A stretch of DNA of 20,000 nt from Raillietiella orientalis (Eukaryota), in NCBI GenBank assembly GCA_036172245.1, contig JAYWIR010000113.1:117572-137571 (forward strand), written 5' to 3'. The notes under the pieces were generated by a model. That model searched no databases, had not been told where the DNA came from, and was given only the letters and a program-made list of their open reading frames with translations. Made by a program: the position numbers and the translations under genes. Positions 830 through 20,000 of the stretch are shown here, piece by piece (position 1 is the stretch's first letter; each line of letters opens with the position of its first letter).

Positions 830-2507
830 GCTGCCACCTATTTCGAACTGCTGCTGAGAGCATACAGGCTGACATTGTCTGCCCTACCAAGCTCGTGCCC
901 CGGTACGCTGGACATGTCGGCGTATGCTGCTGATCTTCTGCTCCTGCTAGGCATGTCAGATTCGGCTTTGGCAGTAAAGAATTCCTTCGACTTGCTGAAC
1001 CGCGGAACAGGATTACGGGTGAACAGGACGAATCCGCCGCTGGCTACGGTTGGTGAAACGTGGGCAGGATGATCTTATTGGATCCGACTGGGGATACCCA
1101 CGAAGAGGTACTTGAAGTACTTCGGCGTTCTATTAAATGACTTCTGTTAGTCAGAAGCCTGATCAGGTCGTCTCCAGAAAGTGGAGTTGGCGATCGGCCC
1201 GTTCCTGGAAGACAAGTTCCACTTGCAGCAATGGACAGCGGTGTGGAACGCGTTTCTGGTTTCCTTAAATCGCCCCCTTCTTCTTGTTTGGCCGTAACCC
1301 ATAAGATGAGAAAGAGAACAAAGAACCTCCTGGGCATCGTTCTGTAGGGCGGCGGGAGGCCTTTTTTGCTTCTGGAGGATTTGTAAGCTTCCCGTCGGGA
1401 CGGAGATTTCAGCGTCCTTACGCAAGATCCCGTAACGAAACAGCAGCGATGGCGCAGCCTCGCTATCGCAGCAAAAATATGTAGCACTCCTTAGTGCGTT
1501 CCGATCCACCTCATCGCTAGACGTGTGTCCGGGACTGATGGACTAGCATCTCTTCTGTGCTCCAGCCGGAAAACAAGATGCGGCCTTCTCCGGGACGCAT
1601 CATCATCCTCGCAAACGAGAACGGGTAAAAAGACTGTAGCCGCGCCAACTCCAGCGCATGAATGGAAGAAACAGTTGGCTCGTGGGCTGAGTTAAAGCAG
1701 CCTAGTGAAGAATCTTGCAATTGCCTTTGCCCGGCATCTACATCGACTGTGCGCTACGGAACATGATCGAGGATCCTTCCAGAAGCACGTGGAAGGAGAC
1801 AACCCTACTGACCACGGCGCTGCCCTTCCTGAGAATGGCGCTTCATGACGGCCGAAAACCCAGGAGTGAAATTATCTGCCGGATAGCGGGCAAGGAGAAT
1901 GGGTTAAATGGGTGGACCATGATGGAACTGGCTGACGTCGCGACTCCAAGCGTTCTCTAGCTCGGAATCCAGAGATGAACGAGCTGCTTGGCCTTTTACT
2001 GGATGATCTAAAGTGGCCTGTGTGATTTAGACACGCAACCAACCTCCCTCTCAAGTTGCAGGAAACAGCTCTGCTTTTGTTGCACTGGGGGCTTCCCTGA
2101 TACGCGCGCCGCCACCACTGGACGTTGAGGAACCTGGGAGAGAACTGTACAGTGTGCGGGGAGAAGGAATCCTTCCTTCACCTGTTTCTGTACTGCGCTG
2201 TTCTCTGGACCCTGTCGGAACGTTTTGCTACGACCCTCCGGATACCGGCAGTACCCGCACAGACGCTGTGAGACTCCACTTCGTGCGAGACGCCCTGCAA
2301 CCAGCATCAACCCTGGCAGCGCTCTACTGACTCTGAGGGAGTGTGGCTGGGTGATGAGCGTTTAACAGAGAAAGAAGAGCTGTGGACACCATCGATCACG
2401 CTGGTCGCAACCTGCGAATCGCGATCGGCTGGTCCCATCTGGGAGCCATGACGAGAAAACTCGAGGGCATCCTGGAAAACATAGTCTCTCCCCCCAGCGG
2501 GCTGTGA
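830..2507 (+). pseudogene. ORF2 remnant (RT domain 5 to C-terminal zinc finger), many stops and frameshifts
   Basis: YADD is mutated to YAAD. Fragments 875-1072 and 1715-1960 match ORF2 of segment F. TGA at 2505-2507 aligns with the natural stop of D2 and F. Confidence 0.85.
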
Positions 2508-2694
2508 TCGCTTCTTGACTCTCCAAATAGTTTCTTTTTGTTTGTTTCATTTATTTCACTTTTTGTTTTACCCCCTAGCCCCTCCGCTGCCAAGAAGAGT
2601 CAGGCCGGTCTGTGGACCGGCTTTCTAACACGTCCCATGAAATATTGGACGAAGCGCGGCCTATTACCGCAAATGTACAGTGTTTATAAATAAA
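830..2694 (+). mobile_element. Segment A: 5'-truncated, heavily decayed L1/Tx1-like non-LTR retrotransposon, family 1 (RT C-half to 3' end)
   Basis: Translation ATYFELLLRAY..LPSSCP..AYAADLLLLL aligns with STYFDLVLRAY..LPSSCPAVAAYADYLLLLL of the 17062-18312 ORF. Colinear with copies C, D2 and F through LLLHWGLP, the U-rich 3'UTR, the hairpin and the terminal TTTATAAATAAA (ends 2694). Confidence 0.9.
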
Positions 2695-2950
2695 CGGTCC
2701 AGCGTGACTAAGTGAGAACTTCCCCGTGTCCTTCTAGGGAGCGGACGTGGTTTGGCATCGCACCGCGCTCTAGTTAGCCTAAAGCATTTTGGTAGTATTG
2801 TCTGGTGTGTGGGAGCGCCTGTGTCGCATGTCAGAAATGCCTGAGGACACCGCGATGGAAATTGGAGGAGGAGAGGCAACTTGCTCCCCTCCACCCATGA
2901 AAGGGGAGGCATCCGCTCCCACGGAGTCCTGAAAAGCAACTGGCTGCCGG
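2695..2950 (+). mobile_element. Segment B1: 5'UTR and first codons of ORF1 of a family-1 element (same type as E1), 3'-truncated
   Basis: Begins with the head motif and has GCGGACGTG at 2741-2749. ATG 2828 reads MSEMPEDTAMEIG, matching MASLPEDTAMEVG of ORF1 at 15571. Confidence 0.85.
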
Positions 2951-3073
2951 ACACGAGTGTGTAAAAAACTCACTTGAGAGCGGGAGAATTCAATCGAGTG
3001 CGGACGTGTTCTTCTTTGCTCTCGTCTCCAGGCTTTCGTTTGCTTCGTCCTGTTGTCGTGCATTTTGACGAAG

Positions 3074-5022
3074 ATGTCGACCCAACCCGAAGCTACTGAA
3101 GTTGGAGAAGCAGCACCCGGATCTGCAATCGCGGAACCGACAACCGCCTTCTCTTTGTCTGCCTTGCCATTGGCGAGAAGTTTTGCTGAAGTTGCTGCCG
3201 CAGCAGCCGTCAAAGGGGAACCACCCGACGATTCGGAATTGCGGGCATACGTAGCATATGGCTATAGACCCGCTCTCCGATGCAAGGTGAATGGGTTTCT
3301 TTCTTCGCTTGACGGCAATCAGTTCAACGATGAGCTGACCCGTGTTGGCGTGCGGGAGGAGACCTTCTCGCCATAATGCCCGTAAAAGAAATGGGCTATT
3401 TCAAGGTGCGCTGCACAGACGCTGCACATGTGTAGCGCTTGCTGCGCACCCCTTTGTCGATCCGTGGACAGAAGGTCTTCCCGGCTGCCAGGGATGACTC
3501 GTTCGTGGCGGAGATTTTCGACATCGAGTCGGAAATCTCCGACACTGATATTAGGAACGCGTTGGCGAAATTCGCCACGATCCATGCGCCGTGATGGGTG
3601 CGTAGCAAAATCAAGGACTTCCCGTCTATACAGAGCGGAGTTGCTGGAGTCCGGCTTACAACGCCAGACCTCCGTTGCTGCCCACCAAACTACAGGTGAA
3701 AGACACGGTCGTTCACCTGTGGTTCGTGGGCAATGTTCGAACGTGCAAGCAATGCGGGAAGAAGAGACATTCTTTGCATAAATGCCCCATTGGGAAATGT
3801 CGCTATTGCAAGCTTTCCGGGCACCAATTAGGAAATTGTCCGGATCTTTTTCAAAAAAAGGCAGCCGCTGAGCTTCGACGAACCAAACGTAAAGCGGAAA
3901 AAAAGAAAATATTTGCGAAAAAGCCGAAGAAATTAAGGCAGAAATCTCGAAATAACGCAAGGCGGAATGCCTCCCCAAAGCAGCGGAAGTACTCGCACTC
4001 TAGGCCTCGCGGGCCTTATCTCGCGGCGGGGGAGCCGCAAAAGAAAGGGCACGGGGAATCCGGGGCAATGGAAGGTCCTCCTAAACGCAATAGCAGATCC
4101 GCCGAAGCACGCACGGCTCTATCGGAGTTCGAGCAACCGGCGGGGACGCCAATGGACAACAGCAGTAAGGACACTGCCAGTACTGCAAGTTCCATTCCTT
4201 CAACACCTTCAGTGGCTGAGAAGCCCAAAGCAGGTAAGAAGGGTTGTGCCATGCCGACTTCGATAGTCGGCAAATTAAAATCCGCGCCGCGGGCAAACGA
4301 TGCGAAAGCGGAGAAAGATCCGACAATAGGAGAGTAAGCTCTCGACTGAAGCGGAAGCGATGCCGACGATGGGGTTAAGAGCCCTACCAAAGGCAGCGCC
4401 GATGACGAGCGTGTCGAAGTCATCGGAAGTGCTCGCGTCCAAAGACGCAAACGCCTCCAATGATGGCAATAGAGAATGGACGGTGGTAGAAGAAAGCGGA
4501 AAAATAAACAAAGCTCAAGGAACGCACTACAACCTTTATCGACGGCGCCACGTGAAGCGAATAACCGTCATGAAGTCAAAAAGACTTCTGCAAAGGTTCC
4601 ATGAGGAACTGCCCGTAACCACGCGGACATTGCGCTCGCCGGGAAAGCAGCCGTCAAAAAGAGCGACGCTATGGTGACGGACTCCTGTCAGTTTAGCAGA
4701 ACCTGCCACTTCTCCGCGGTTGGCCAAATGCCGATCGACAATGTGCAAGTCGGACTCCGAAGCGGGGGCCGACCTGAACGCAGAGACCAGGATAACTCGT
4801 TCGAAAGCGTGTGCGTAACCGTCGAAACTAAGGAGCCAGACAACGCACGCCGCGGAGCAAAGACAACTTTCCACCAAACCCGGCGGAGTTAAACCTAGCG
4901 TGGAGCGTGATACATGCAGCAGGAGGGAGGAGGGTGGCGACCGTCTACTCCAGCCGGTCGTGCTGCTCGCCGTCCGCTCGCCGAATTAAGAGAGCAAAAA
5001 GCCGCCGCCTTCCCAGCAGTAA
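3074..5022 (+). pseudogene. ORF1 (gag-like nucleic acid-binding protein, two CX2CX4HX4C knuckles), disrupted
   Basis: MSTQPE..RSFAEVAA N-terminus; CKQCGKKRHSLHKC and CRYCKLSGHQLGNC in ORF 3675-4337; low-complexity C-half; TAA 5020-5022 aligns with the ORF1 stops of D1 and E1. Confidence 0.85.
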
Positions 5023-5433
5023 CGCGGGGAATCGCGTCTTCTCCTCATCTGTCCGTCGCGTGTTAAAACGTGAACGGACTCCAGAACGAAGAAAAGAGGC
5101 GATTAGCAGCGAAAGCCCCGCGGTCCTTCGACCTCGTGCACCTGCAGGATCTTCACGTAATCTCCGACGAGCAGGCTGCCATAATCGAGGGACGCGCAGG
5201 CGGAACGCTACATTGGCGGTGGGGCGACGCACACAAGAACGGCGTCGCGTTCCTCGTAAGAGGAAAAATGGCGAAAGCGGTGCGTGAGTTCGTTTCCACG
5301 AAGACATACGGATACGCCAACTTGTCTTCCTTTCGGTAAGCCAGAGTGATGCTCCTTTCGAAAAGGAGAGATCTCTGGAAAGTGAACATCTGGCGTCCGA
5401 TCACGATCGTGAATACGGACGCCAAGTTGATAG
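5022..5433 (+). pseudogene. ORF2 remnant: APE endonuclease N-terminus fused by deletion (~5320) to an RT domain 1-2 fragment
   Basis: C*NVNGL..FDLVHLQDLH..NGVAFLV (APE), then ARVMLLSK..WRPITIVNTDAKLI (RT), closely matching 18020-18125. Confidence 0.88.
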
Positions 5434-7222
5434 TTGCCACACGGTCAAGCAGGGGCGTTTATCATGAATTCTCTATAATTCGTGTTACGAGACCTTACAA
5501 CGGCCCAACCAACAGGACCTGCCAAGTTGACAGTACGCACACCGGCGCGACACTCCTCGGCAGCAGAGGGGGATGGGAGGAAAAACCAAAAAAAAATAAA
5601 ACATAAAAAACAAAAGATGCTGGAGGGCCGGGAAAGGATCACGGTCCACTGGAAAAGGGGTCCATCCTTTTGAGAATTTTCGCGAGGTCCGTCCGTATAA
5701 TTCCAAGGTGGGACCATCTGGTCGCAATCCGCAGGTAGCGGACTGCAAGTACGACGGCATCCCTGTCTTGGCTCGGTCTCCTCACGTCGCTCCAGCACGT
5801 CACTATCCCGGTGAAACAGCAAAGTGCAGCCAGTGCAGCAGCTGGTCGCAGGGCATCCTGCACGAACAGAAGCCGAAAAACGCCTCTGGATTGGCTGCCC
5901 TCCTGGATCCAAAGGGAGGCACGAAGACGCTCGCACAGGGGTCGGAGGGCAGCACAATCAGCAAGGAGGTGGGAGAGCGTTTCCCGCTCCCCACACCTTA
6001 TGCAGTCCGGACTTACTGGACCCCTGGTTTAGTGGTGCTGGCGTGCGTTCCACGGTAGACCCCAATGCGACAACAGGAGCGTCGACTCCTGCCACTTCAG
6101 AGGGAGGATCGACGAACCAACGAATACCGGGGACCACTTCAGTCCATCCATCGGTGTGCCGAGCAGGTCGCCCCATCTCAAGAGTCCTCTCGACTGGACG
6201 CTTGGGGTACTAACGTTTGCCAGTTTGTCCATGGACCAGACGCTCATCAACCTTTCTCTGCCTGCAATACGGCAAAATATTTGCCACCTAGGATTGAGGT
6301 TGCTGGAGAGCGCCCTCCTAAGGAAGAACAACGCCGTAGCTAGAAGTGTTGTCTCTGCATACGTACTTCTTACGGGAAACTAGATGATATTTCGCAGATT
6401 GCAGCAAGAGTAGGCTCCGTGTTGCAGGCATTTCCACTTATCTTGATTGCTGCCATTAATCTTTGGTCACGTGCAAGTGGTCTCCTAAAGCCATGCGGAA
6501 AAGTTGGCGGGGCTGCATACCATTTCGCTGTTTTCCTTATCCAGAGTTGCCACCCATCCCAAGAGAAGTCCGCATCTCTTGAGCTTCGAGCTAGAGCACA
6601 GAAGATCACAAGCGAGACCTTCCGTTCCAGATACACAGCTGCAAAGAAGTCGGGACAAACGCAACATTGGGTGCCCCATAACATTGCTGCGATGGCCAGG
6701 GTGTGCCATCGTAGCTGAATCTCTCCTCGCTCCAACGTCAAGAGACCAATACCGTCATCACAACGTGGAGCACACAAGTCCTTCAAGAAGACACGGGGCC
6801 TCCCTCTTACCCTAAGGAACAAGTCTCCGGAGGTCCTTCGTCAGCTTCCTCAACTTCCGAGGGACGAAGCATACAAAAAGCAGGGTGCGAAGTATGGAAG
6901 TCGCGTAAGCGTTCCACACTGCGGCCCGTTCCGGAAGAAGAAACTTGGCTTACAGGAACGGGCCGATCGACGTTTCCACTTTTCGGATGCAGCCGGACCA
7001 CACATACGAAGGGGAATTGTCCCCAAACGGCACACCAAGGTACTTCAAGCACCTCGCCGTGGGAATCCCTAAACGGACCCAGTCCTGCTGCCGAGCCCAC
7101 GCCACGCCTACTGTCACCATCGACTACTTCGTACTGTTAACCGGCAGTCCAGTCCCGCGGCTAAGTAGATCGAAAAAATCTCCAAGCGCCTCTGTGGGGT
7201 GGACACGGAAACAGGAGTACCA
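5433..7222 (-). mobile_element. Segment C: family-1 3' portion (post-YADD RT, thumb, zf-RVT, 3'UTR, tail and head motif), decayed
   Basis: GDFFDLLSRGTGL, LKDLCAPRCDDGIGLLT, LKWQESTLLLSHWGLP and DALRPAAALAALCC all match segment F. 3'UTR hairpin at 5519-5563. Confidence 0.9.
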
Positions 7223-8938
7223 ACCTCACGAAGTTGCTGAAGTGTTCCGGAAGGCCTAGCATCTCCAGAACCTTCAGCAGCATCCCATGGTCGATGGAGT
7301 CGAAAGCCTTCTCCATGTCAGTGAACACCAGCGCCAGATTATCGCCGACGTATCGAATGAGTACGAAGGTGGACTGGGCACACTTGACATTGTCCGACAT
7401 GTGACGTCCAGGGATGCACACGTTTGGACCGGAGAGATGAGCCTCGACATGACCTTGCCTAAGCGGTTGGACCAGATCTTCGCCAACAAGTTGGCATCCG
7501 AGTTCAATATCGAGATTGACCTCCATTGAGCGACCTGCGTGAGGTCGCCTCCTTTTGAAAACAATCCCATCCGACTCTCGTAGAAGGACTGTGGAAGTCT
7601 TCCTTCTTCGAGGATGCAGAGGGTCAACTGGTGGAAAAAACGCAGGTAGGCATGCAGGTACCGCTGATAGTGAGTGATGGGTACGCTGTCAGGGCCCGCT
7701 GTCACGTCCTTCCGTAGTTGACCAAACGCAGTCTTCACTTCGTCTTCGGAGAATTCCTCCTCCAGTCTGTTCCGCTGGAGATCGTCGGTCCTCTTCTCGA
7801 GGTAGCTCAGAAAGGCCTGTTGACTAGAGCGACAGAGATGTTGTCGCCTGAAGTGTTTCGTGTAATGCCTGTGAAAGGCATCCACGATGTCCTCAGACGA
7901 CTGTCGCTTTTTACCGTCGTACTGGATGCAGAAGATATCTGTTGCCACATTTCTCTTCTCCAGCATTCCGACTTCCACTTTTATGTTGTTGAAGACGTAC
8001 CGACTCTGGTACTGATCGAAGTACTTTGAGAGTAAGCGATCTTGGATGTTCAGCTCCCGGTACGCCTCCTGCCTCAAGCGCCTATTCCCGAACTGCATGT
8101 TTGCAAACAGGTGTATCCTGTGTTTCAGGCTGTCCCAGTCGGCGACTCTTCGGATTGTTGTTGCCTTCAGAATCGTCTCCAGGACAGCCTGATTTCCGGG
8201 ATGGGTTTCGAACCAGGCGAACATGCTGATGAGCGCCGCCCTGGTGCCTTGCCTCCGCCGAGGATTCTCCGTTCTTAGGGAAAACCGCACCAGGGGGTGA
8301 TCGAACACCGTGGTCATAATGTCTCGAAAACCCAGGATGCGATTCCAAAGTTCGGTGCTGTGCAGGACGTTATCGATCGGCTCGTGACTTGCAGTTCGTC
8401 ACACCAGTCCGAACTCTTCGGATAACAGGCGATACGCCGTCCTTCCTCTGGCGTCTTCGGAGTAAGTGATCTCATCCAATATGTTGAGATCGCCAGCAAC
8501 AATCATGACGTCCTTGGAAGCAACCTTTTCACGGAGTGCTGCATGCAGCGCCTCCGCACAACGATGTTTCAGCCTGTGCGGCCCGTACACGTTCACCAGG
8601 ATGAGGTGAACAGTAGCGGACCAGGCCAGTCGCACGCCGATGATTCGTCCGGGTTGGGGACAGAACACTTCCAGAATAGTGAGGGCCAAGTTGTTCTTAA
8701 TTAGGACTGCCACACCCTGCGTGTTCCGTTCTCCCTCGCTGACGAAAATCTGCCGGTTGAATCGCCGTTCCATTTGCTGACTAATCTCGAGACCCATCTT
8801 GTGGGTCTCCTGCAGGCACACTATGTCTTGTTGTGCAATGGTCCGCACAATCCTTTTTCTTTTTCTCTAGTCGACCATACCGTTTACATACCACGAGGCG
8901 ATGTTCAGCCTCCTGGTGGTCGATACGGAAGAGGCCAT
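7223..8938 (-). pseudogene. Family-2 ORF2 (APE endonuclease and RT domains 0-3)
   Basis: MASS..LNIASWYVNG, IVCLQETH, GVAVLI, NVYGP, AGDLN, IDNV, FDHP, then AGPDS, WRSISILNSD and DMEKAFDSIDH. In-frame stops at 8867-8869 and 8399-8401; frameshift near 7415. Confidence 0.92.
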
Positions 8939-10668
8939 AAAAGGGGAAGACCTATTTCTTGGCCTTCCTGAGCTTCTTATATCTAAGAGAGCGTGCTCTT
9001 CCAGACAATGAAGAAGCAGCGGGCTTCTCGCTGCCGCGTCACTGTCTGTTCCGGTGAGGTCGGTTACTTCCGCTTCCTCCGTCGAGTGTTCGGCCCGCGC
9101 GATCAGTTTTCGAGATAGCGTCTCTATCTGGACCTTTGCGTAGAAGTTCGCCTTTACGTCGAGAAGCTGTTCCTCTATCTTTTCGCGTTCAGCGACCTCC
9201 ACAACCTGGTTGATGTTCTCTTGTGCAGTGCAGATCTTCTGCAAGATTTTCTCTTGCTGGGGACCGCTCTGCACCTCTAGGATCTCATTAGCCAGTGATG
9301 CCAACTCCTCCATAGATTGCAGGGCCTCCTGCGACACCGGAGTGGCTTCGGCTATTTCTTCTTCCGCGCCTTTCTGCGAAACCTCCATCTTCTCGCCTTC
9401 TTGCTCTTCACCTTCCAGGATAAGAGGGGTTTCTTGCTCCTTGACGAGCATCCTCCTCTTTCCTTTCTTCCCTACCTGTATGAAGCCGTCTTCCGATACC
9501 GGGACGGCTTCTTTCACCTTCTTCGCCCTTCCTGCCTTCTGAGGCTGTTCCGCCTCCTTGGTGTTTCTCTCTCTCACGGGAGAGAGACCTCGAATCCTTC
9601 TGCAGTTTGCAAACTCCGGATAGCTCCATTTGGCATGTCCGTATTTCTTGCAGAAGGAGCACACCTCCGGCTGCGGGCAGTTTCGGACTTGATGTCCTAC
9701 TTTGCCGCAGCGGAAACAACGACACGTTGGGCAAGCGCCGGCCCTGTGGCCGAACTGCTTGCACCCTGTGCAGAATATCGGCTGTTGCCTGTAACCCACG
9801 TTCACTCCTTAGGATTGTTCGTCAAGAACGGCTAATCCAGGGATCACAGCTCCCTCTTTCAACTTCATTTTGGCGATGATGTCGCCAGAAAATATATTTC
9901 CAGAGAAGTTCTGGAATTCGAGGTCCAGAACTTCCCCATACTGCTCCAAAAATTCCACACCGTTAGTTGCGGTGTGAATATGGAGATGTCGTTCAGAAAC
10001 ACGGTTGTGTATGGCATCTCGCCAGCACCAAAAACCATCCTCCCTTGTATATTGATCCCCTTCTGGATCAATCGCTCTCTAATATTTTCACAGTCTGTGA
10101 AGACTGTGAACCCGTTATTTGCCGGTATGATCGCCTGTATGCGATCAAAATTGATATCCGTCTTATCGAGGGACAGATACACCTCCCTGATATTACTGAA
10201 CTTGATCAGTCCAGCCTTGAAAATAATGGGCTTCTCATTCGGCCCTAACTCCACGATCGGCCGATCCACCTTTTGGACTTTACCGCATAGCGGCTTCCCG
10301 AATTTTCTTGGTGGGTGGACACTCGTTTGTCCAGCCGCCACCGACGCATAGGAAAAGGGCTGCGCCGCCGCAGCCGAACAAGATGGCGTCTCGCCCTGAA
10401 CCGCGTGGACGCCCGCGGGTCCTGCCTGGGACGCCGCCGCCGCGAGCGCAACCCTCGACGTCGCCACCGTTGACGCCGCGGGCGGCACCCGCGCCATCAC
10501 CGCCGCGGGCGCGACCTTCCCCGCCGCGGGCACGACCTCCGCCGTCGTCGCCGCGGGCACGACCCTTGGCATCGCCGCCGCCGGCGCAGCAAAGCCCACC
10601 GCGGGCGCGATTCTCGGCATGCCTGCCACCGCCTCGCCGTTGCCGCACGTTACCTTCATGGCTTCCAT
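8905..10668 (-). pseudogene. Family-2 ORF1 with RRM-like region and three zinc knuckles (third degenerate)
   Basis: SYASVAA; TTVFLNDI..(frameshift ~9947)..LEQYGEV; CTGCKQFGHRAGAC, CFRCGKVGHQVRNC, CSFCKKYGHAKWSY; acidic, coiled-coil-like C-half. Confidence 0.88.
10430..10625 (-). repeat. Imperfect GC-rich coding repeats in family-2 ORF1 (R/E/K-V-x-P-A-A units)
   Basis: Recurrent CCGCGGGC on the + strand; peptide PRIAPAV/PRVVPAA/AEVVPAA/GKVAPAA/ARVPPAA/SRVALAA. Confidence 0.75.
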
Positions 10669-10834
10669 GGAGCACGACGGTCTCTCCACTCATCCTCTAG
10701 GTGCCTGTATCCTGGAAGCTGGTCTTGTTGCACGGGACTACTGCACGTCTTTTGCCGCGATCTCCTCGCCGCTTCTTTTGTAGCTTCGTCTGGAAAACTT
10801 CCCCTATCCGGGCACACACGAGCACAATTAACTG

Positions 10835-11612
10835 GTTATGTTGTCGAGCGAACAATACTTTGAGCCGCGAAGCAAGTTTACCGACTCGTCAGGAGCGGAG
10901 CGATCTGGCGACTGTCAAGAAGGTGACTCCGTTGCCGTAGTTGAAAGGCATAGCGAAAGCAACGCCCGCAGAGAACGCAGCGAAAAACCCCGAAGGTTTC
11001 CGCAACTACTGTCGCGGAAGCCTCCGAAAATCGCGAAGGCGAATGGAAGGTTGTGGAGACGAAGAAAGAAAAATCTGCAAAAAAAGCTTCGCAACATCCA
11101 TCCCTGAGCTTTTCCAAAGAACAAAGCAGTAGCGCGCATACGAAAACACGCGCAGCTTGTGCTCCTTCCCAGGAAAAAGCCAGCGCCTTCAACGTGTGCA
11201 AGTTTGCTTCTGTGACCACCGAGTAGACCATTCCGGTGAAATCGGACGGATGAAAGCGCACGGCGATCGTGCGAGCATCAGACTACGCAAAGGAGTCCGA
11301 TAGCGCCGCTGAACAACGCGTTCCTCGCGCGGGATCGTGCGCCTTCAGGGCTTCCGCCCTGAGGCGTAACACACACGCCTCGGAACGGCAAGGGCTTACC
11401 CCGGAACCCACAGGTTCTGCACCCGGTGAGGACCACTCGATTACGTGCAGCACAGTTTATACCGGTGGCGAGCGCGCCCTCCAGCCCGTCGTGTGCTTAC
11501 TACCCGTTCTCCGGGAGACGAGAGCATTATACCCTCGCTTTCCCAGCCGTGATGAGGGCAATCGCGCCATCTAGTCGTGTTGCCGAGAAGTCTTGGAACG
11601 TCAATGCAGGTG
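10835..11612 (+). mobile_element. Segment D1: ORF1 C-half and ORF2 start of a B2-like element, decayed
   Basis: LKGIAKATPA..ASENREGEWKVVE aligns with LRALPKAAPM..ASNDGNREWTVVE (4360 ORF). AFPAVMRAIA..SWNVN (~11537-11605) aligns with AFPAVTRGIA..C*NVN of B2. The 5' boundary is approximate. Confidence 0.75.
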
Positions 11613-12275
11613 GCAAGGTGGCAAGTCTCCTGCTGCATCGAGGGACGCGAGAAGTTGATCAGCGGCTGGACAACAGGAGAACTGGCTAACGCCACGACAC
11701 CGAGCTTACAGCCGCGAAGACTAAGAAGATGGGGCGAGCTGCTGTCCATCCCTATGGATGTGCAGAAGTGGCCCCCGCTTCTTCAGAAATCCAGGATCCT
11801 GCCCCTTAATTGGAAAGAGTCGGCGTTGCTGTTGTTGCATTGGGGTTTACTCTGCAAGGCACGCCGCTCTCACTGGACAAGAGAAGTTGTGGATCCTGCG
11901 TGTGTAAGGTGCGGAGAACGGGAATCGCTCTCCCACCTTATTGTGGACTGTGCTGCCATGCGTCCCCTTTGGCAACAGTTTGGGTCGATCCTCGGTCTCC
12001 CTACGGGCAGTTCCCCTAGACACGTTCTTCGGCCCCTCTTCGTGAAGGACGCCCTGCAGCCAGCCGCAGCCCTTGCAGCCTTGTGCTGCGTCCGAGGCAT
12101 CGTGGCGGCATTGAGCGACACCAACAAGGAAGGAGTGGGTCAACACGCGAGTGATGTCATCCCATATGCCCAACGCTTCTTGCGAAGAGCTGCTGGATGG
12201 CCCCAAATGGGGAATCTACGGATGGACCTCGAGGGCTTCCTTCAACGGATGGGCCCTCCTCTCAGCGAACAGTGA
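11613..12275 (+). pseudogene. ORF2 C-terminal domain with zf-RVT-like CX2CX7HX4C; frame open but 5'-truncated
   Basis: CVRCGERESLSHLIVDC; natural TGA at 12273-12275. Confidence 0.88.
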
Positions 12276-12351
12276 TCCCTTCCCTGCACCCCAACCTCAT
12301 TTGTTTGTTTGCGTTTTTGTTTTTATTTTTGTTTTTCCTTATCCTCTTTCG

Positions 12352-12396
12352 CTGCCGGGGAGTGCCACGCCGGGCTGCGTCCCGGCGTCCCGGTAG
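12352..12396 (+). other. Conserved 3'UTR RNA stem-loop (also 15768-15812 -, 5519-5563 -, decayed at 2587-2630 +)
   Basis: Outer stem CTGCCGGG/CCCGGTAG, GAGTGCC bulge, inner stem ACGCCGGG/CCCGGCGT with CTGCGT loop; compensatory changes between copies. Confidence 0.8.
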
Positions 12397-12485
12397 GTCC
12401 CGTGCATAATGCCGTGAGCGGGGCCAGGTACCGCAATTTTAGAGTTCTTTATAAAAAAAAAACCCCGGGCGTACCCGGGTGGTAA

Positions 12486-13625
12486 CGCCGAATCCCCGGG
12501 GCAGACGTTACACAGGGAACTGTTCGCAGAACTCCCGGACCGAGTCCTTAAATAGGTATCATTCCGCGATACTCTGGATGCTGACGCCTCGCAGGAATTC
12601 GCGAAGATGTTCTTTCGCTCCTGACAGGCGCGGCGAGTCCCCTGGCATACGCCAATCCCTGGATGGCGGTCCCTTGTCGCGCATGCGCATCTCGAATGCT
12701 AACCGCGAATCTTTTGACAGCGTCGATCCTAGTGTCCTTCCTTTTCCAAACCGTGTGCACAGGTTTTCGTCGAGGAAGACGTGGTCCACGCTGCTGACCA
12801 TCTCGCTTATTTCTGTCAACAAGTTGCGCGCGCGCCTGGCGGCGCACAACTCGTTGATCGCGCTACCCTGTGCTCCGGGCTGATCTGAGAGCAGACGGAC
12901 GTTGAAATCCCCTGCTATCAGATGCGCCTTCCGCACGTCCGCATCCTCCAGCCATTCGCGCTTCAAGGTTTCCAGTAACGCGTTGCGCTGGTGGTATCCC
13001 TGTTTACCGCTAGGAGCGTACACATTGGTGACGATGGGGGCGATCGAATCGGACCATCTGAGAATCAGTTGGCCGATCCGTCCGTTGTCCCCAAAGCGCA
13101 CGCACTTCACGGCAGCGTTAATGGCTGGCTTTAGGAAGAACTCGACCCCACAAGGGTTGCGGGCGCCGCATCGCCAGTACAACCGCACTTTCGCGATCGT
13201 TTCGATCTCCTGTCCGTCTTTTGCGGTGATGACGTGGATCTCCTGCAGAAGCACCAGGTCGAAATCTCGCAAGGTGGCGGCTGTATCTCGTCTGCTTCCA
13301 TCGTCGTGCAGCCCGATAACATTCCAACTGGCCCCGCAATTCCGACGGCGACAGACGAGTCCAGGTGATATACCTGGGAACCTGGCGGTGGTTCTCCCGC
13401 CACCTTTTAAGGCGGGTCGCTGGACAGGGTTGGCGTCTTGCCCACCAACTCCTCATCCTTCTTTCGTGCCGACGTCTCCATCTGCCCGTACGAAGGGGGT
13501 GTTGTTCGTACCTGTTGGCCCACATCCATTGGTGCGGGTGGTTCAGGTTCGGCGGTTTCAGAGGGCATTGCTGACCCCTGGTTACCCCTCTTCCACCCCC
13601 CTTCCATTTCCTTCTTTCTCTCCAA
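12486..13625 (-). mobile_element. Segment E2: end of ORF1 plus full APE endonuclease and part of the linker, family 1; truncated at both ends
   Basis: ASWNVIGL, DLVLLQEIH, NVYAP, IAGDFN, VDHVFL (ORF 12559-13272 and its upstream extension); homologous to 19585-20000. Confidence 0.9.
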
Positions 13626-13696
13626 CCCCTCTTCGCGCAGCCCGTTGACGTTCCAACAGGCCGCGCGAATCCGACGGCGACTGGCGAGCCCAGGTG

Positions 13697-15571
13697 TTAG
13701 TCCAGGGTAAACGGCGATGCGGCGTCCGCCACCTGCTGGGACGGGACGCTAGGTGGAGGGGGAGGAGGGACAGGTACTGAAGGCACCTTTGCCTACTCTT
13801 CCATCGGTGCCGGCGCGTCGGCCGGATCACCCGCAGGTGGAGTCGCGCCTACCTGTTCGCCTTCCTCCATGGGTTCGGGCTGCTCAGGTTTCGCGACTGC
13901 AGGGAGGACTTAACCCCCCTGCTCTCCCTCCTCCATGGGGGTGGCCGTCTCCACGGCTTCCGGGCGTGGGTATTCCCCTTTCGGGATTCCCACGCTGCCG
14001 CTTCCTTCCGGTTTCTCCTCCTCGCTGGTGGAGGGGTGGCGCCTCCTGGGTTTCTGGGACTTGCGTCCCGACTTCCTGGGGGGTGCCTTCGAGGAGGAGG
14101 GTCCGCTTCCGGCCCCCAGGTCGCACTCACCTGCGGGGGCCGTCTTCGTCGGAGCCGATGTGCGTACGCCCTTGCGCGACGGGGTTTCGCGCTCGGCGAG
14201 CGTTGCTGCGAGCTCCTCCGCCGCTTTCTCGAAGGCCGCGTCTTCGCCAGGGGCGACCGTTGCCGCGGGCTGCTCCGCGACCTTATCGAGCGCGGCGTCA
14301 TCGTTGACGGCGAACGTTGCCGCGGGCTCCTCCGCGACTTTATCGAGCGCGGCGTCCTGGCTGTCGGCGCGCGAGTCTCGCGTATCACCGTCTAAACGTA
14401 GAATGGGCTCGTCCACGCGAGTATTCATCGCGTCCGCATCAGCTGTTCCGCGAACATTGCCGCGGGCGGACTCGGCAAGAACGGCTAAGCGTTCCAGTGC
14501 CACCGAGCATTCGCGAAGTTTTTTTTTTGAAAGCGGCGCGGCTTTTTTCTTGTTGCCGGCAGTTTTCTTCTCCGAATTTTCTTCTATAATCACTTTCTTT
14601 TTTTTCTCTTTTCTGGCCTGAACCAGCTGCCGACCCTTCTCCATTCCCGCGTCCACGGGAGCTATTTGCTCCGACGTCTGTACGGGAGGAAGGGAGGCTG
14701 GCAGTTGGGAACGGCCATTTTCGCGAGCTGGTCTTTCTACCAACTTTCCACGTTTTCCCTGCGCCTTTTTGGCGGCAGGGGGCACCGGGGAGGAACGCTT
14801 GGGGCACACGCGCCGAACGTGACCCTTCTCGCCGCATATGTGTCACACAATGTTCGGGCACCATTTTCGTAGATGCCCTACTGCATTGCAGTAGCCACAA
14901 AATTGGCGTTTCCCCACGTACCAGAGGTTCAGCGCTTCTTGGCAGACCTCCAGCTTGTGGGGAAGCGCACCACCCTCTTTTACTGTGATACGCGCCGCAG
15001 CTTGACCTCCGAAGAGGCTATTGTAGCCTTGGAAAATCGTGGACTTCGGCCACAACGCGTGCACTTCTCCGTGGTTTTGAAGCAGTTCTCGAACCGCTGA
15101 CCTCGTCATGCGACTTGAGATCCCAGTGAGATGGACCATCACCGAGCGGTCCATCGTTATCGGCAAGATCTTCCGACCATCAACGATCAGCGGGTCGGTG
15201 ATCAGATGTCGGGCCAAGGTGATATCCTTGCATACCACCTCGACCCGCTGCCCGCCGCTGAGGACGCAGAGGCCGTCGAGATCTTTTTCAAAAATATTGG
15301 CGTTCTGCAGCGCCTTCGTAAAGGCGCGTTCAGTTCGCCCATCGAAGAGGTTGCCTACCTTGTAGACTAGCGAGGGTTTATACCCAGCTTTCTTGTAGGC
15401 TTCCATCTCGGCCATGGCTTCCACGCTACGCGCGGCCACCATGGCGCTCCATGACCTCGTCGTCGCCGGGGACGATTCCGTGGCGCATGCCCCTAATCCA
15501 GTAGGCTGTGGGGACGAACAAGCTTCCATCACGCCTACTTCCATCGCGGTGTCCTCTGGCAAAGATGCCAT
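13697..15571 (-). pseudogene. Family-1 ORF1, ~625 codons in a single frame with three internal stops
   Basis: RSWSAMVAA; RRM-like VHLTGI..LLQNHGEV; CGYCNAVGHLRKWC and *HICGEKGHVRRVC. Internal stops at 14843-14845, 13910-13912 and 13793-13795; conserved TAA at 13697-13699. Confidence 0.88.
14186..14356 (-). repeat. 57-bp x3 tandem coding repeat in ORF1 (19 aa)
   Basis: DAALDKVAEEPAATFAVND / DAALDKVAEQPAATVAPGE / DAAFEKAAEELAATLAERE; TTATCGAGCGCGGCGTC at 14283 and 14340. Confidence 0.9.
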
Positions 15572-15708
15572 CGGACACCGACGGTGTGCACGCACAAATC
15601 ACTCAAGAAGAAAAAACACACGCTTTGCCACGCAGGCGGAGCGCAGGAAAAGCACGTCCGCTCTCCACAGCGGGGATTCGGCGTTATCACCCGGGTACGC
15701 CCGGATCG

Positions 15709-18700
15709 TTTATTAATAAACTTTACATGCATGGTACAAGGCCCCACCACGGCCGTAAACACAGGACCTGTCGGGACACCGGAACGCAGCCCGGAGTGGC
15801 ACTCCCCGACAGCGAAGAAGGATGGGGATAAGACAAAAAGTAACATAAAAAGAAACAAACAAAAAGAAGTTGGAGGGCAGGGAAGGGATCACTGTTCGCT
15901 GTGGAGAAAGCCCATCCGTCGAACGAAGCCCTCGAGGTCAGTCTGCATATTCCCCAGTTGGGGTTATCCGGCAGCACTTCGCCTGCAGCGTTGGGCATAA
16001 GGGATTACATCCCTCGCGTGTTGACCCACTCCTTCCTTGTTGGTGTCGCTCCATGCCGCCATGATGCCTCGGACGCAGCACAAGGCTGCAAGGGCTGCGG
16101 TTGGCGTCAGGGCGTCCTTCACGAAGAAAAGCCGAAGAACGTCTCTAGGGGAACTGCCCGTTGGGAGACCGAGGATCGTCCCAAACCGTTCCCAAAGGGG
16201 ACGAAGGGCAGCACAGTCGACAATAAGGTGGGGAAGCGACTTCCGCTCCTCGCACCTGACACACCCAGGATCCACAACTCCTCTTGTCCAGTGAGAGCGG
16301 CGTGCGCTGCAGGGTAAACCCCAATGCAACAACAGCAACGCCGACTCTTTCCAGTTAACAGACAGGATACTGTATTCCTGAAGAAGCGGGGGCCACTTCA
16401 ACACATCCATAGGGATGGCCAGCAGCTCGCCCCATCTTCTTAGTCCTCGCGGCTGGACGCTCGGGGTCGTTGCGTCTGCCAGTTCTCCTGTTGTCCAGCC
16501 GCTGATCAACTTTTCGCGTCCCTCGATGCAGGAGGAGACTTGCCACCTTGGCGTCCAACTGCTGTGAAGTGCCCTCTTCAGGAAGGACAGCGCCGTAGCT
16601 AGACAGGTCGTCTCTGCCCACGTGCATCTTGCTGGACTCTCCAGGAGATTCCGCAGCGTGCAGCGGGTGTAGGGGCTGCATCGGAGACGATTCCACGTCT
16701 CGTGGCTTGTCTGGTTAACCACTGCCCACGTTCCAATATTTTCTTCCAGCCAGGCGGAAGAGTTGGCGGGGCAGCAAACCATCCAGCTGTTCTCCTTGGC
16801 CAATGTTGCCATGCTCCCGAGCAGTAGGCCGCATCTTCGCATCTTCCGGCTACGGCTGAGAAGAAAAGACGCGAGTCCATCGCACCGGGACACACGGCTG
16901 GCCAGGAGGCGGGGTAGAGTGCACCAAGGGGTGCACCACATCTTCGCTGCGATGGCGAGGGTTCGCCACCGCAGCTGCTTCTCCACGCGCTCCTGCGTCA
17001 GGAGGCCAAGACCGCCGTCCCGACGCGGAGCGCACAAGTCCTTCAGTGGGACTCGGGGCCTCTACTTGCCCCAAAGGGCGATACGGAGGAGGTCCTTCGT
17101 CCTCTTCTTGGATTTCTCGGTGGGGGGGCAAACAAAAAGCAAGGGGCGGAGGATGGGGGCCGCAAAGGCGTTCCCAACCGCGGCCCGTTCCGGCAAGTGA
17201 TACTTGCCTTCCAGGAACGGGCCGATCGCCGCCTCGACTTTTTGGAGGCAGCTGGACCACGCTTCCGCAGGGGAGTAGTCCCCCAACGGCACACCGAGGT
17301 ACTTGAAGCACCTCGCTGTGGGGATACCCAGACGGACCCAGTCCTGCTGCCCTGCCCACGCCGCACCTATTGGCACAACCGACGACTTCACCCTGTAAAC
17401 CTGCAGTCCGGTCCCGCGGCTGAGCAGATCGAAGAAGTCTCCGACCGTCTTCGCCGGGGTGGACATTGGCAACAAGAGCAGAAGATAGTCGGCGTACGCT
17501 GCTACGGCGGGGCACGAGCTCGGCAAGGGGGCCACAGTCACCATGTACGCTCTAAGCACCAAATCAAAGTAGGTGCTAAAAAGCAGGGGGCTTTCGCTAT
17601 CGCCCTGCCTTATGCCCCGCCGCACCGGCACGCCATACACCTTTTGACCGCTGAAAGAGACGGTAATTATCGCATTCCGCCAGCAAAAGCGCAGGTAGGA
17701 AATCAGGGAGGGTGGAAAGCCCATGCGACCCAGGAGCTCCAAGAGAAGTTCCTGGTCTACACAGTCGAACGCCTTGTGGAGATCGACTGCGAGCGCTAGG
17801 GCCCCCTTCCCCGCCCGGGGGTCCCTTCCCAGCCCGGCTGGCGGCCCCAATGTGGGGTTGCCGACTTTCCCTATCCCTTTCTTCTCTCTTCTCTGCAGGT
17901 GCACCCATGTGCTTGCGAAGAAGAGGTTGGCATCCATACTTCGCCCGGGAACAGCATAAGTCTGCTCCGGGCTAATTACGGATTCTGCCACCTGCCCCAG
18001 ACGCGAAACCCATAGTTCTGCTATCAACTTGGCGTCCGTATTCACGATCGTGATCGGACGCCAGTTCTTTAAATCCCTGAGGTCTCCACCTTTCGGCAGG
18101 AGCCTCACTCTGGCTGACCGAAACGAGGCGGGAACATCGCCTTTGTGTCGGATCAGCCTGATGAACTTAAGCAGCAGGGGTGCCAGCTCTTCCTCGAAGC
18201 TCTGAAAGAACTCCGCGGGCAAGCCGTCTTCCCCTGGCGCTTTACGCCTCTTGAGCCTTTTGATACCGGCGAGAATTTCGCCGGTGGTAAAAGGCTCGTT
18301 GAGGCTTTCCATCTCCCCCTACCCTAGTGCCGGGGCGCCATCCGGAAGCAAGCGCCGAGAGGCGTTTCGATTGGGGGCTTCTGGCGTAAAGGGAGGAATA
18401 GAAATTCCGCACGAGATGCCGTACCGACGCCGGGGACGAACATTCCAGGCCCTGGTCGTCCAGCAAGCTAGCCGACCCGGAATGCCAGGCTTGGCGTTCG
18501 GCACCGGCGCGGTACTCGGCCAGGCGACGGACATTTGGGGTTCTTTCGTACCTACGAGCCTGTAAATAGGCCCGATGGTTGCGAGCACCCTCGCCGAATC
18601 CAAGGGGCAGGCGATCCAGGGGGAACTGCTCACAGAACTCGCGGACCGATTCCTTAAAAAGTTCCCAGTCCTGGAGATTCCGGAGCGTGACACCTCTCAG

Positions 18701-18744
18701 GTATTCGCGAAGGTATTCCTTCCCACCTGAGAGTCGCGTTCAGT
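15709..18744 (-). mobile_element. Segment F: 5'-truncated family-1 element (linker, complete RT, zf-RVT, 3'UTR, AATAAA)
   Basis: Best-preserved ORF2 in the window; ends TTTATTAATAAA directly abutting the head of E1. Confidence 0.93.
15889..18744 (-). pseudogene. ORF2 reverse transcriptase and C-terminal zinc finger
   Basis: KAPGEDG, WRPITIVNTD, DLHKAFD, GIRQGDSESPLLF, YADY (YADD mutated), FKYLGVPL, GGLGL, CVRCEERKSLPHLIVDC. In-frame stops at 17062-17064 and 15964-15966; frameshifts near 18315 and 18470. Confidence 0.95.
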
Positions 18745-18750
18745 TGAAAA

Positions 18751-20000
18751 TCGAACGCCTTGTGGAGATCACTGCGAGCGCTAGGGCCCCCTTCCCCGCC
18801 TGGGGTTCCCTTCTAAGCCAGGCTGGCGGCCCCAATGTGGAGTTGCCGATTTTTCCTTTCCCTTCCTTTTGACACCTCTGCGCGTGCATCCATGTGCTCG
18901 CGAAGAAGAGGTTGGCATCCATACTTCGCCCGGGAACAGCATATGTCTGCTCCGGGCTAGTTATGGATTCTGCCACTTGTTCCAGACGCGAATCACATAG
19001 CTCTGCTATGAACTTGGCGTCCTTATTCACGATCGTGATCGGACGCCAGTTCTTTAAATCATTGAGGTCTCCCCCTTTCGGAAGGAGCCTCACTCTGGCT
19101 GATCGAAACGAGGCGGGAACAATCGCCTTCGTCTCGGTTCAGCCTGATCAACTTAAGCAACAGGGGTGCCAGCTCTTCCGCGAAGCTCTGATAGAACTCC
19201 GCGGGCAAGCCGTCTTCCCCTGGAGCTTAACGCCTCTTGAGCCTTTTGATACCGGCGAGAATTTCGCCGGTGGTAAATGGCTCGTCGAGGCCTAACATCT
19301 CCTCCTCTTCTATTTCCGGGGCGCCATCCGGAAGCAAGCTTCGAGAGGCGTCTCGATCCGGGGGCTCCCTGGCGTAAAAACAGGAACAAAAACTCCGCCC
19401 GAGATGCCGTACCGACGCCGGGGACGAACATTCCCGGCCCTGGTCGTCCAGCAAGCTGGCCGACTTGGTTTGTTAGGCTTGGCGTTCGGCCCGGCGCGGT
19501 ACTCGGCCAGGCGACGGACATTAGGGGTTCTCTTGTACCTACAAGCCTGTAAATAGGCCCGATGTTTGCAAGGACCCTTGCCGGATCCGAGGGGCAGGCG
19601 GTACAGGGGGAACTGCTCGCAGAACTCCCGGACCGAGGCCTTAAAAAGATACCTATCCGTAAGTTTCTGGAGACTGACGCCTCTCAGGAATTCGCGAAGG
19701 TGTTCCTTCGCACCTGAGAGTCGCGTCCAGTCCCCTGGCAGACGCCAGTCCCTGGATGGCGGTCCTTTGTCGCGAGGCCGCACCTCGAAAATTAACCGGG
19801 AATGGACCGACAACCTCGACGCAACTTTCCCCCGTTTGCCGACCCGTGAACACAGGTCAGCGTCGAGGAAGACGTGGTCGATGCTGCGGACCATTCCCCT
19901 CTCACCCGCGAACAAGTTGCGCGCACGCATGGCGGCGCACAACTCGTTCATCGCGTTCACCTGTGTTTCCGGCTCACCTGTTAGCAGGCGGAGATTGAAA
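18751..20000 (-). mobile_element. Segment G: family-1 ORF2 fragment (EN C-half, linker, RT domains 0-3), continues beyond the window
   Basis: FNLRLL..IDHVFL..SVHS, then WRPITIVNKDAK..ALALAV. 18751-19731 is a diverged direct repeat of 17765-18744. Confidence 0.92.

Follow-up and report, generated by a model that had tools for sequence, protein, structure and literature searches.

Tails followed by a head-like motif in a decayed LINE nest of Raillietiella orientalis: a candidate self-priming, terminally redundant element

Zepp and the Zepp-like (ZeppL) elements of green algae are long interspersed nuclear elements (LINEs) of the L1 clade which form nested self-targeted clusters with tandem arrays of 3′ ends (PMC8226300, PMC3446292). 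How LINE-only clusters of this type, the Zepp-type centromeric or telomeric arrays, keep self-inserting is not understood at the level of mechanism. Here we consider a 20,000-nucleotide stretch of DNA from Raillietiella orientalis (GenBank assembly GCA_036172245.1, contig JAYWIR010000113.1, positions 117,572 to 137,571 of the forward strand; hereafter the window), nearly all of which is a nest of decayed LINEs with an apurinic/apyrimidinic endonuclease (APE), as judged by self-BLAST, tblastn and Pfam. Every LINE 3′ end (tail) in the window is followed by a short motif that, at two sites, lies at the start (head) of the next copy. A limited literature search did not turn up a LINE described as regularly having its own head segment behind its tail, although such an account may exist in print.

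The Drosophila telomeric LINEs HeT-A and TART, like the family in the window, form head-to-tail arrays. There, however, the segment in common is of 3′ origin and has been placed at the 5′ end, tails carry poly(A) and copies are added to chromosome ends, whereas in the window it is a head-like segment that stands behind the tail, and both orientations occur among the copies. For TART, one report describes 5′ and 3′ direct repeats and proposes a template jump between them (PMC1636488). Zepp, as far as its descriptions go, resembles the window family in that copies insert into existing copies to give tandem arrays, and in having an ORF2 with APE and reverse transcriptase (RT) domains and, apparently, a gag-like open reading frame 1 (ORF1). 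It differs in its poly(A) end (Table 1 of PMC3472496), for which there is no counterpart at the junctions here, a comparison based on published descriptions of Zepp; the same source also records some green-algal L1 families without 3′ repeats. The secondary literature on Zepp was not found to mention any head motif behind its tails. In TRE5-A of Dictyostelium (AB-ORF1/ORF2-BC) a module of the 5′ untranslated region (UTR) recurs in the 3′UTR, a feature comparable with the motif of the window family. According to PMC3159450, however, the B-module is 290 bp long, is internal to the 3′UTR, is followed by the C-module and is regarded as playing no part in retrotransposition; tRNA genes are the targets of this element.

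The window (G+C content 56%) contains at least seven LINE pieces in both orientations, which together occupy positions 833–20000 by self-BLAST and tblastn and display the nested self-insertion of such clusters. Stops or frameshifts are present in every copy. Exactly four LINE 3′ ends were located by self-BLAST and tblastn, those of elements A, D, E and F (Table 1), and all four tails, an A/T-rich box ending in ATAAA or the sequence TA10, precede a homologous motif of 24–38 nucleotides (nt), as the first-pass annotation of this DNA had reported. The conserved columns of the motif read GC.T..C...GTG..AAC. At junctions J1 and J4 it extends into homologous 5′UTRs and ORF1, again as claimed; residues 5–46 of the G ORF1 product match positions 2813–2941 at 51% identity in tblastn. 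The motif had been said to stop after a short distance at 5433 and 12498. Antisense LINE ORF2 does follow at both sites, the RT of B at J2 and the ORF2 of G at J3, and the homology of B to other copies ceases at 5432, exactly where the J2 motif begins. The earlier account needs one correction, in that 9 nt at the end of the J3 motif (12487–12495) are also target sequence.

The reported lack of added poly(A) was confirmed: none follows the motif at any junction, and ten A residues precede it at J3 only. No target-site duplication (TSD) was recognisable, and the poly(A) or simple-repeat 3′ end with a TSD that is a feature of APE-type LINEs was not found at these junctions. We considered whether the 25 nt at J2 might be a continuation of the B RT; this was ruled out by the end of B homology and by run X1, a single DNA run with related sequence in the form of contigs (word share 0.13), which represents a relative, not the same genome. 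Contigs of X1 run on past 5429 with ordinary RT sequence, which confirms that B is broken exactly at the motif start.

The similarity of the motifs was assessed by comparing alignments of their first 26 nt with those of 20,000 random pairs of 26-mers from the window. The resulting p-values are 0.0059 for J1–J2, 0.72 for J1–J3, 0.014 for J1–J4, 0.0059 for J2–J3, 0.084 for J2–J4 and 0.00065 for J3–J4. A degenerate pattern derived from the four motifs, and in that sense circular, finds only those four sites in the window at up to two mismatches (0.72 expected), and four matches were reached in one of 200 shuffles; at three mismatches the nine sites found against 8.1 expected are at chance level. 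Between subfamilies the motif is 52–68% identical (34 of 38 positions for J3–J4) and the 3′UTR is 62–67% identical (75% for E–F, where the whole match is 86.5% over 889 nt), in agreement with the earlier observation that divergence of the motif tracks that of the 3′UTR. Motif and tails have thus diverged to a similar degree, and the motif is therefore encoded by the element and not by a host RNA gene. A hairpin, CCGGG-CGTA-CCCGG, is present in the motif of E, F and G only.

These comparisons bear on the most improbable of the explanations we weighed, namely that the junctions descend from one ancestral junction by segmental duplication, are alike by chance or contain a host multicopy RNA gene. 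The close match of E and F, which covers tails and motif, is what a duplication would leave. Nevertheless, the downstream contexts differ at all junctions, which largely refutes the idea, and the tails are only 62–75% identical and belong to different elements. Differences between subfamilies are as large in the motif as in the tails, chance is made unlikely by the 26-mer and pattern tests, and Rfam returned no ribozyme or RNA gene, only three weak matches to microRNA models far below threshold. Both the ancestral-junction and the host-gene possibility had been listed in the first-pass annotation as ways in which its proposal might fail.

A fifth junction is provided by X1, of which 372 contigs match the window, 12 of them at 99% identity or more and 233 at less than 90%. 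Among the matches listed, one contig fits the tail of A up to 2695, continues with the 37 letters ACCCCGGCGTGAGCGGGTGGCACTCCCCAGCGTCCAC and resumes at 6033. The inserted letters correspond to a further variant of the motif together with the 5′UTR-like bases that follow it. A second joint, from 5962 to 2403, has the same depth (2) as the joint from 2695 to 6033. If the two belong to one contig then, provisionally, this would be a short solo insert with both flanks visible, consisting of a tail fragment of about 330–370 nt and the motif inside an antisense D-like ORF2.

The solo motifs end at different points, after 25 nt at J2, about 36 nt at J3 and about 37 nt at the X1 joint, and in three different LINE ORF2 contexts. 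Since the tail and 25–37 nt of motif occur together in three unrelated contexts, the motif lies at the 3′ end of the mobile unit; on the DNA evidence of these three solo junctions, the repeat is present at that end. The overlap at J3 is informative with respect to how the joint was made. The 9 nt concerned, GCCGAATCC, are matched at the homologous antisense ORF2 sites of F, which reads GCCGAATCC (9/9), and F′, which reads GCCGGATCC (8/9), and the homology starts exactly there; the head of G carries the same 12 nt after AAC. By a rough estimate the probability of a 9-nt overlap at the joint is about 4^-9, far beyond chance. The overlap therefore suggests a joint formed by base pairing between the 3′ part of the motif and the target, and fits RNA–target priming. 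The variable end points, together with this overlap, would fit an RNA that extends beyond the A/T box, with priming at whatever point the nicked target can pair with this RNA.

A precedent exists in R2, for which Luan and Eickbush reportedly found in 1996 that reverse transcription can be positioned at its start by additional RNA at the 3′ end that is able to pair with the target. The family in the window would resemble R2 in having target-matching downstream RNA, with which the J3 overlap is consistent. The two differ in that the endonuclease of R2 is restriction-like and its target is the host 28S sequence, in contrast to the APE-type enzyme and putative self-target considered here.

Our tentative proposal, made from the sequence of the junctions, is that the retrotransposed RNA ends 25–40 nt past the A/T box in a head-identical segment that pairs with nicked target DNA. 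In essence this is the model of the first-pass annotation. We judge it quite possible while stopping short of calling it probable; from the joints we infer where the RNA would end, that it would pair with the target and that heads might be preferred. The LINE RNA would end 25–40 nt beyond an A/T-rich box such as TTTATAAATAAA with no poly(A) copied, and its terminal segment would be identical to the sequence that precedes the 5′UTR of resident copies. During target-primed reverse transcription this segment would base-pair with the nicked target strand and any poly(A) would be left uncopied. A nick at the same segment of a resident copy would place the new copy exactly tail-to-head with one shared motif, and so build a head-to-tail array. 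Chance microhomology elsewhere would instead give a solo insert, with the tail and 25–37 nt of motif joined to foreign DNA. Resident copies with the segment would be the best-matching targets, and priming there would yield the single-motif tail–head junctions J1 and J4.

In retroviruses the R region, a short terminal repeat after the poly(A) signal, guides strand transfer, though it does so in extrachromosomal reverse transcription, unlike what is envisaged for the window family. A wider version of the proposal, which we regard as rather doubtful, would give the family the logic of long terminal repeats (LTRs) without LTRs. The A/T box would serve as the element's own poly(A) signal and possibly as the TATA box of the next copy, and the R-like repeat of 25–40 nt would prime on resident copies, such that the family supplies its own target. 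The box had been taken as an AATAAA signal for 3′ cleavage; it is indeed present, but it is also TATA-like, and J3 has TATAAA and not AATAAA.

The attraction of such a scheme is that a short element-encoded 3′ segment pairing with resident copies would be a simple and testable mechanism. A self-supplied target and head-to-tail arrays would offer a possible route to LINE clusters of the centromere or telomere type. The family would then, in addition, represent a living link from LINEs to elements that possess terminal repeats, an idea raised for HeT-A.

Several observations weigh against the proposal. Its support consists of five junctions only and all the copies are decayed. Away from a tail the motif was not found in the window by the degenerate-pattern search, and no head occurs without a tail in front of it; the two 'heads', at 2695 and 15708, are the same sites as two of the tails. 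Element D, the only copy bearing a 5′UTR without a preceding tail, has no recognisable motif, and its 5′ end gave no convincing alignment with the heads of B or G (local scores of 20–25, near noise). At J2 the overlap with the target amounts to no more than about 1 nt, and long pairing is therefore not the rule. At J3 the ten A residues between tail and motif could be a poly(A) remnant, which would put the motif on the target side. Folding of the tail and motif RNA gave no significant structure (z from −1.74 to +0.88). Past the 5′ ends of D and E the interrupted elements B and G do not resume, and D and E are therefore not clean nested insertions. As to heads as preferred targets, two of the five tail junctions fall exactly at a head and the other three at different positions in ORF2. 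The claim that a terminal repeat directs self-priming survives in part: the motif moves with the tail and the J3 overlap fits pairing, whereas an RNA that also starts with the motif would be a further assumption and a preference for heads would draw on two junctions of five.

On the junctions at hand, terminal redundancy would be indistinguishable from a plain 3′ terminus that adjoins the next copy. In that case the motif is simply the last 25–40 nt of the element, the 5′UTR starts after it and there is no terminal redundancy; tandems arise when RT, on reaching the 5′ end of its RNA template, jumps to the 3′ end of a second RNA, or by insertion beside an existing end. We consider this unlikely, even if the absence of the motif from any 5′ end without a tail, including the 5′ region of D, is just what it predicts. 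Signs of template switching occur in the window, in the F/F′ pair (a 980-nt repeat with filler) and in the chimeric element E, and 5 of 15 green-algal L1-clade families are recorded without a 3′ repeat in Table 1 of PMC3472496. A plain terminus should nevertheless have a fixed end, yet the end points at the solo junctions are 25, about 36 and about 37 nt, and at both J3 and the X1 joint the sequence runs collinear with what would have to be the 5′UTR of a neighbour.

The same variation in length is accommodated by passive read-through. Transcripts of L1 that proceed past their own signal carry downstream DNA to new sites, a process termed 3′ transduction, and transcripts of copies in an array could likewise run 25–40 nt, sometimes kilobases, into the next copy. 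The motif would then have no targeting role, tandems would form by another route and the phenomenon would reduce to ordinary 3′ transduction in a repeat nest. That the motif of E is closer to the head of G (34/38) than the 3′UTR of E is to that of F (75%) might reflect such an origin, but 34/38 does not significantly exceed the 86.5% identity found over the entire E–F match. The flanks transduced by L1 are arbitrary and are followed by poly(A), unlike those in the window, and read-through leaves both the missing poly(A) after the motif and the 9-nt overlap at J3 unexplained. We do not think it likely.

The A/T box can also be read as a TATA box: TATAAATA at 2685–2692 (J1) and TATAAAAA at 12450–12457 (J3) lie some 27–37 nt upstream of the points at which the short motifs end. 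The 3′ end of HeT-A is reported to act as promoter for its downstream neighbour and thereby to give a terminally redundant RNA (Danilevskaya and co-workers are said to have described this in 1997). By analogy, the box at the 3′ end could set the transcription start for the copy downstream of it, about 30 nt further on and close to the motif end, with mobile units derived from array transcripts. The spacing of TATAAATA and TATAAAAA before the end points of the J2- and J3-type junctions suits this idea, as does the retention of TATAAA and not AATAAA at J3. It is improbable all the same: TATTAATA at J4 and CATGATAAA at J2 are poor TATA boxes, and a promoter by itself does not explain why solo inserts end 25–37 nt after the box.

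We also considered a long TSD at a fixed self-target, the alternative put forward in the first-pass annotation. Insertion would take place at a resident head with nicks staggered by 25–37 nt, and the motif would be duplicated target DNA. The two precise tail–head junctions are as expected, and a poly(A) tail adjoining target DNA could account for the ten A residues that precede the motif at J3. No second copy of the motif flanks any element, however, and an antisense LINE after each short motif would require a 5′ inversion every time. The sense segment predicted on the left is absent from positions 1–832, where tblastn gave no match, and the X1 case, if it is one contig, is a solo insert inside ORF2 and not at a head. 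The alternative is weakened by these findings, and we hold it to be very improbable.

Relatives of the family were sought among proteins, viral sequences, metagenomes and genome contigs. The nearest named matches are only 21–41% identical and are plant, fish and oomycete entries; the one close protein, P0001, is 71% identical. Exact-pattern scans did not find the motif in viral or metagenome contigs, and pattern scans for a conserved RT stretch found none in genome or viral contigs. A single match of the ORF1-start pattern, in viral contig L001, was taken as chance. A scan of metagenomes with a protein profile returned 42 loci, all of which we assign to other families because they are only 22–36% identical; they have no UTR sequence in common with the window, and checks for self-repeats in them showed nothing comparable. 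The same profile gave no match in genome contigs.

Table 1. Positions of the LINE pieces and tail–motif junctions in the window
Feature	Coordinates	Strand	Description
Element A	833..2694	+	5′-truncated LINE: C-terminal part of RT, ORF2 end and 3′UTR; ends in TTTATAAATAAA; tblastn with F ORF2 pieces 48–55% identity
J1 motif	2695..2719	+	25 nt; runs on into 5′UTR of B; junction 2683–2719 reads ...TTTATAAATAAA then CGGTCCAGCGTGACTAAGTGAGAAC
Element B	2695..5432	+	5′UTR, ORF1, endonuclease, RT start; homology to other copies stops at 5432
J2 motif	5433..5457	-	25 nt, after D tail, abuts antisense RT of B; target overlap about 1 nt; reads ...CATGATAAA then CGCCCCTGCTTGACCGTGTGGCAAC
Element D	5458..10830	-	Near full-length decayed LINE: 3′UTR, ORF2 interrupted by stops, APE, CCHC-bearing ORF1 whose frame opens at 10689; 5′ limit uncertain, about 10.8–11.05 kb, no recognisable motif there
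Element E	11464..12462	+	Chimeric or internally deleted LINE; tail ends in TTTAT + A10
J3 motif	12463..12498	+	36 nt; 12487–12495 (GCCGAATCC) common to motif and antisense ORF2 of target; reads TTTATA10 then CCCCGGGCGTACCCGGGTGGTAACGCCGAATCCCCG
Element G	12487..15708	-	Head, 5′UTR, ORF1, APE endonuclease; cut off about 3.2 kb from head (interior point about 12499)
J4 motif	15671..15708	-	38 nt; interval flagged in first-pass annotation, between F tail and G 5′UTR; reads TTTATTAATAAA then CGATCCGGGCGTACCCGGGTGATAACGCCGAATCCCCG
Element F	15709..18744	-	ORF2 (RT, C-terminal domain) and 3′UTR ending in TTTATTAATAAA
Element F′	18751..20000	-	Second copy of EN–RT (endonuclease–RT) segment; 18751–19731 matches 17765–18744 at 88.6%

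The domain assignments come from Pfam. The endonuclease at the N-terminus of ORF2 matches Exo_endo_phos with E = 5.2e-6 in G (12559–13452) and 1e-10 in D (8399–8866), and RVT_1 is matched in F (17062–18318) with E = 7.5e-19, with RT relatives found too. A zf-CCHC domain in the ORF1 of D scores 22.6 bits (cut-off 20.8), and zf-RVT in E scores 20.3 bits, below its cut-off of 27.5. Positions 1–832, without LINE homology in tblastn or self-BLAST, are the sole LINE-free part of the window and may mark the edge of the cluster; a 157-residue open frame there has no Pfam match.

The elements follow a recurring layout in which a tail and head(1..n) face an inverted tail and head(1..n′); the values of n and n′ are 2738 and 25 for the left-hand pair, and 36 and about 3210 for the right-hand pair. 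The F/F′ pair is a direct repeat of 980 nt from the EN–RT segment, 88.6% identical, with about 7 nt of filler at the joint, and looks like either an RT template switch between two RNAs or a 5′-truncated copy inside a 3′-truncated one. Between 11464 and 11614 element E passes from a B-like ORF2 start to an F-like C-terminal part of ORF2, with GGTGGCAAG occurring twice at the joint; 11464–11572 resembles the start of B ORF2, and 11614–12462 resembles the ORF2 end and 3′UTR of F at 86.5%. The possibility that E is the inverted 3′ half of G itself was ruled out, as the 5′ part of E overlaps a region still present in G. Taken together, the facing layout, the F/F′ pair and the chimeric E point to frequent template switching or priming from DNA ends.

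Some further features of the nest may be recorded. An X1 contig of 519 nt spans the head-to-head D/E region (10589–11105) at about 91% identity, so that this region is contiguous elsewhere too; either the relative has the same odd junction, or the junction belongs to a larger unit that is repeated. Within G there is a duplication of 124 nt at the start of ORF2 (13298–13421 and 13627–13750, 73% identical), and its ORF1 contains 3.1 repeats of a 57-nt unit (14193–14369). A GCCGG...CCGGC hairpin is kept in the 3′UTRs of A, E and F, at 2602–2624, 12367–12389 and 15776–15800 (minus strand), about 70–90 nt before the tail, and may be a recognition element for the reverse transcriptase.

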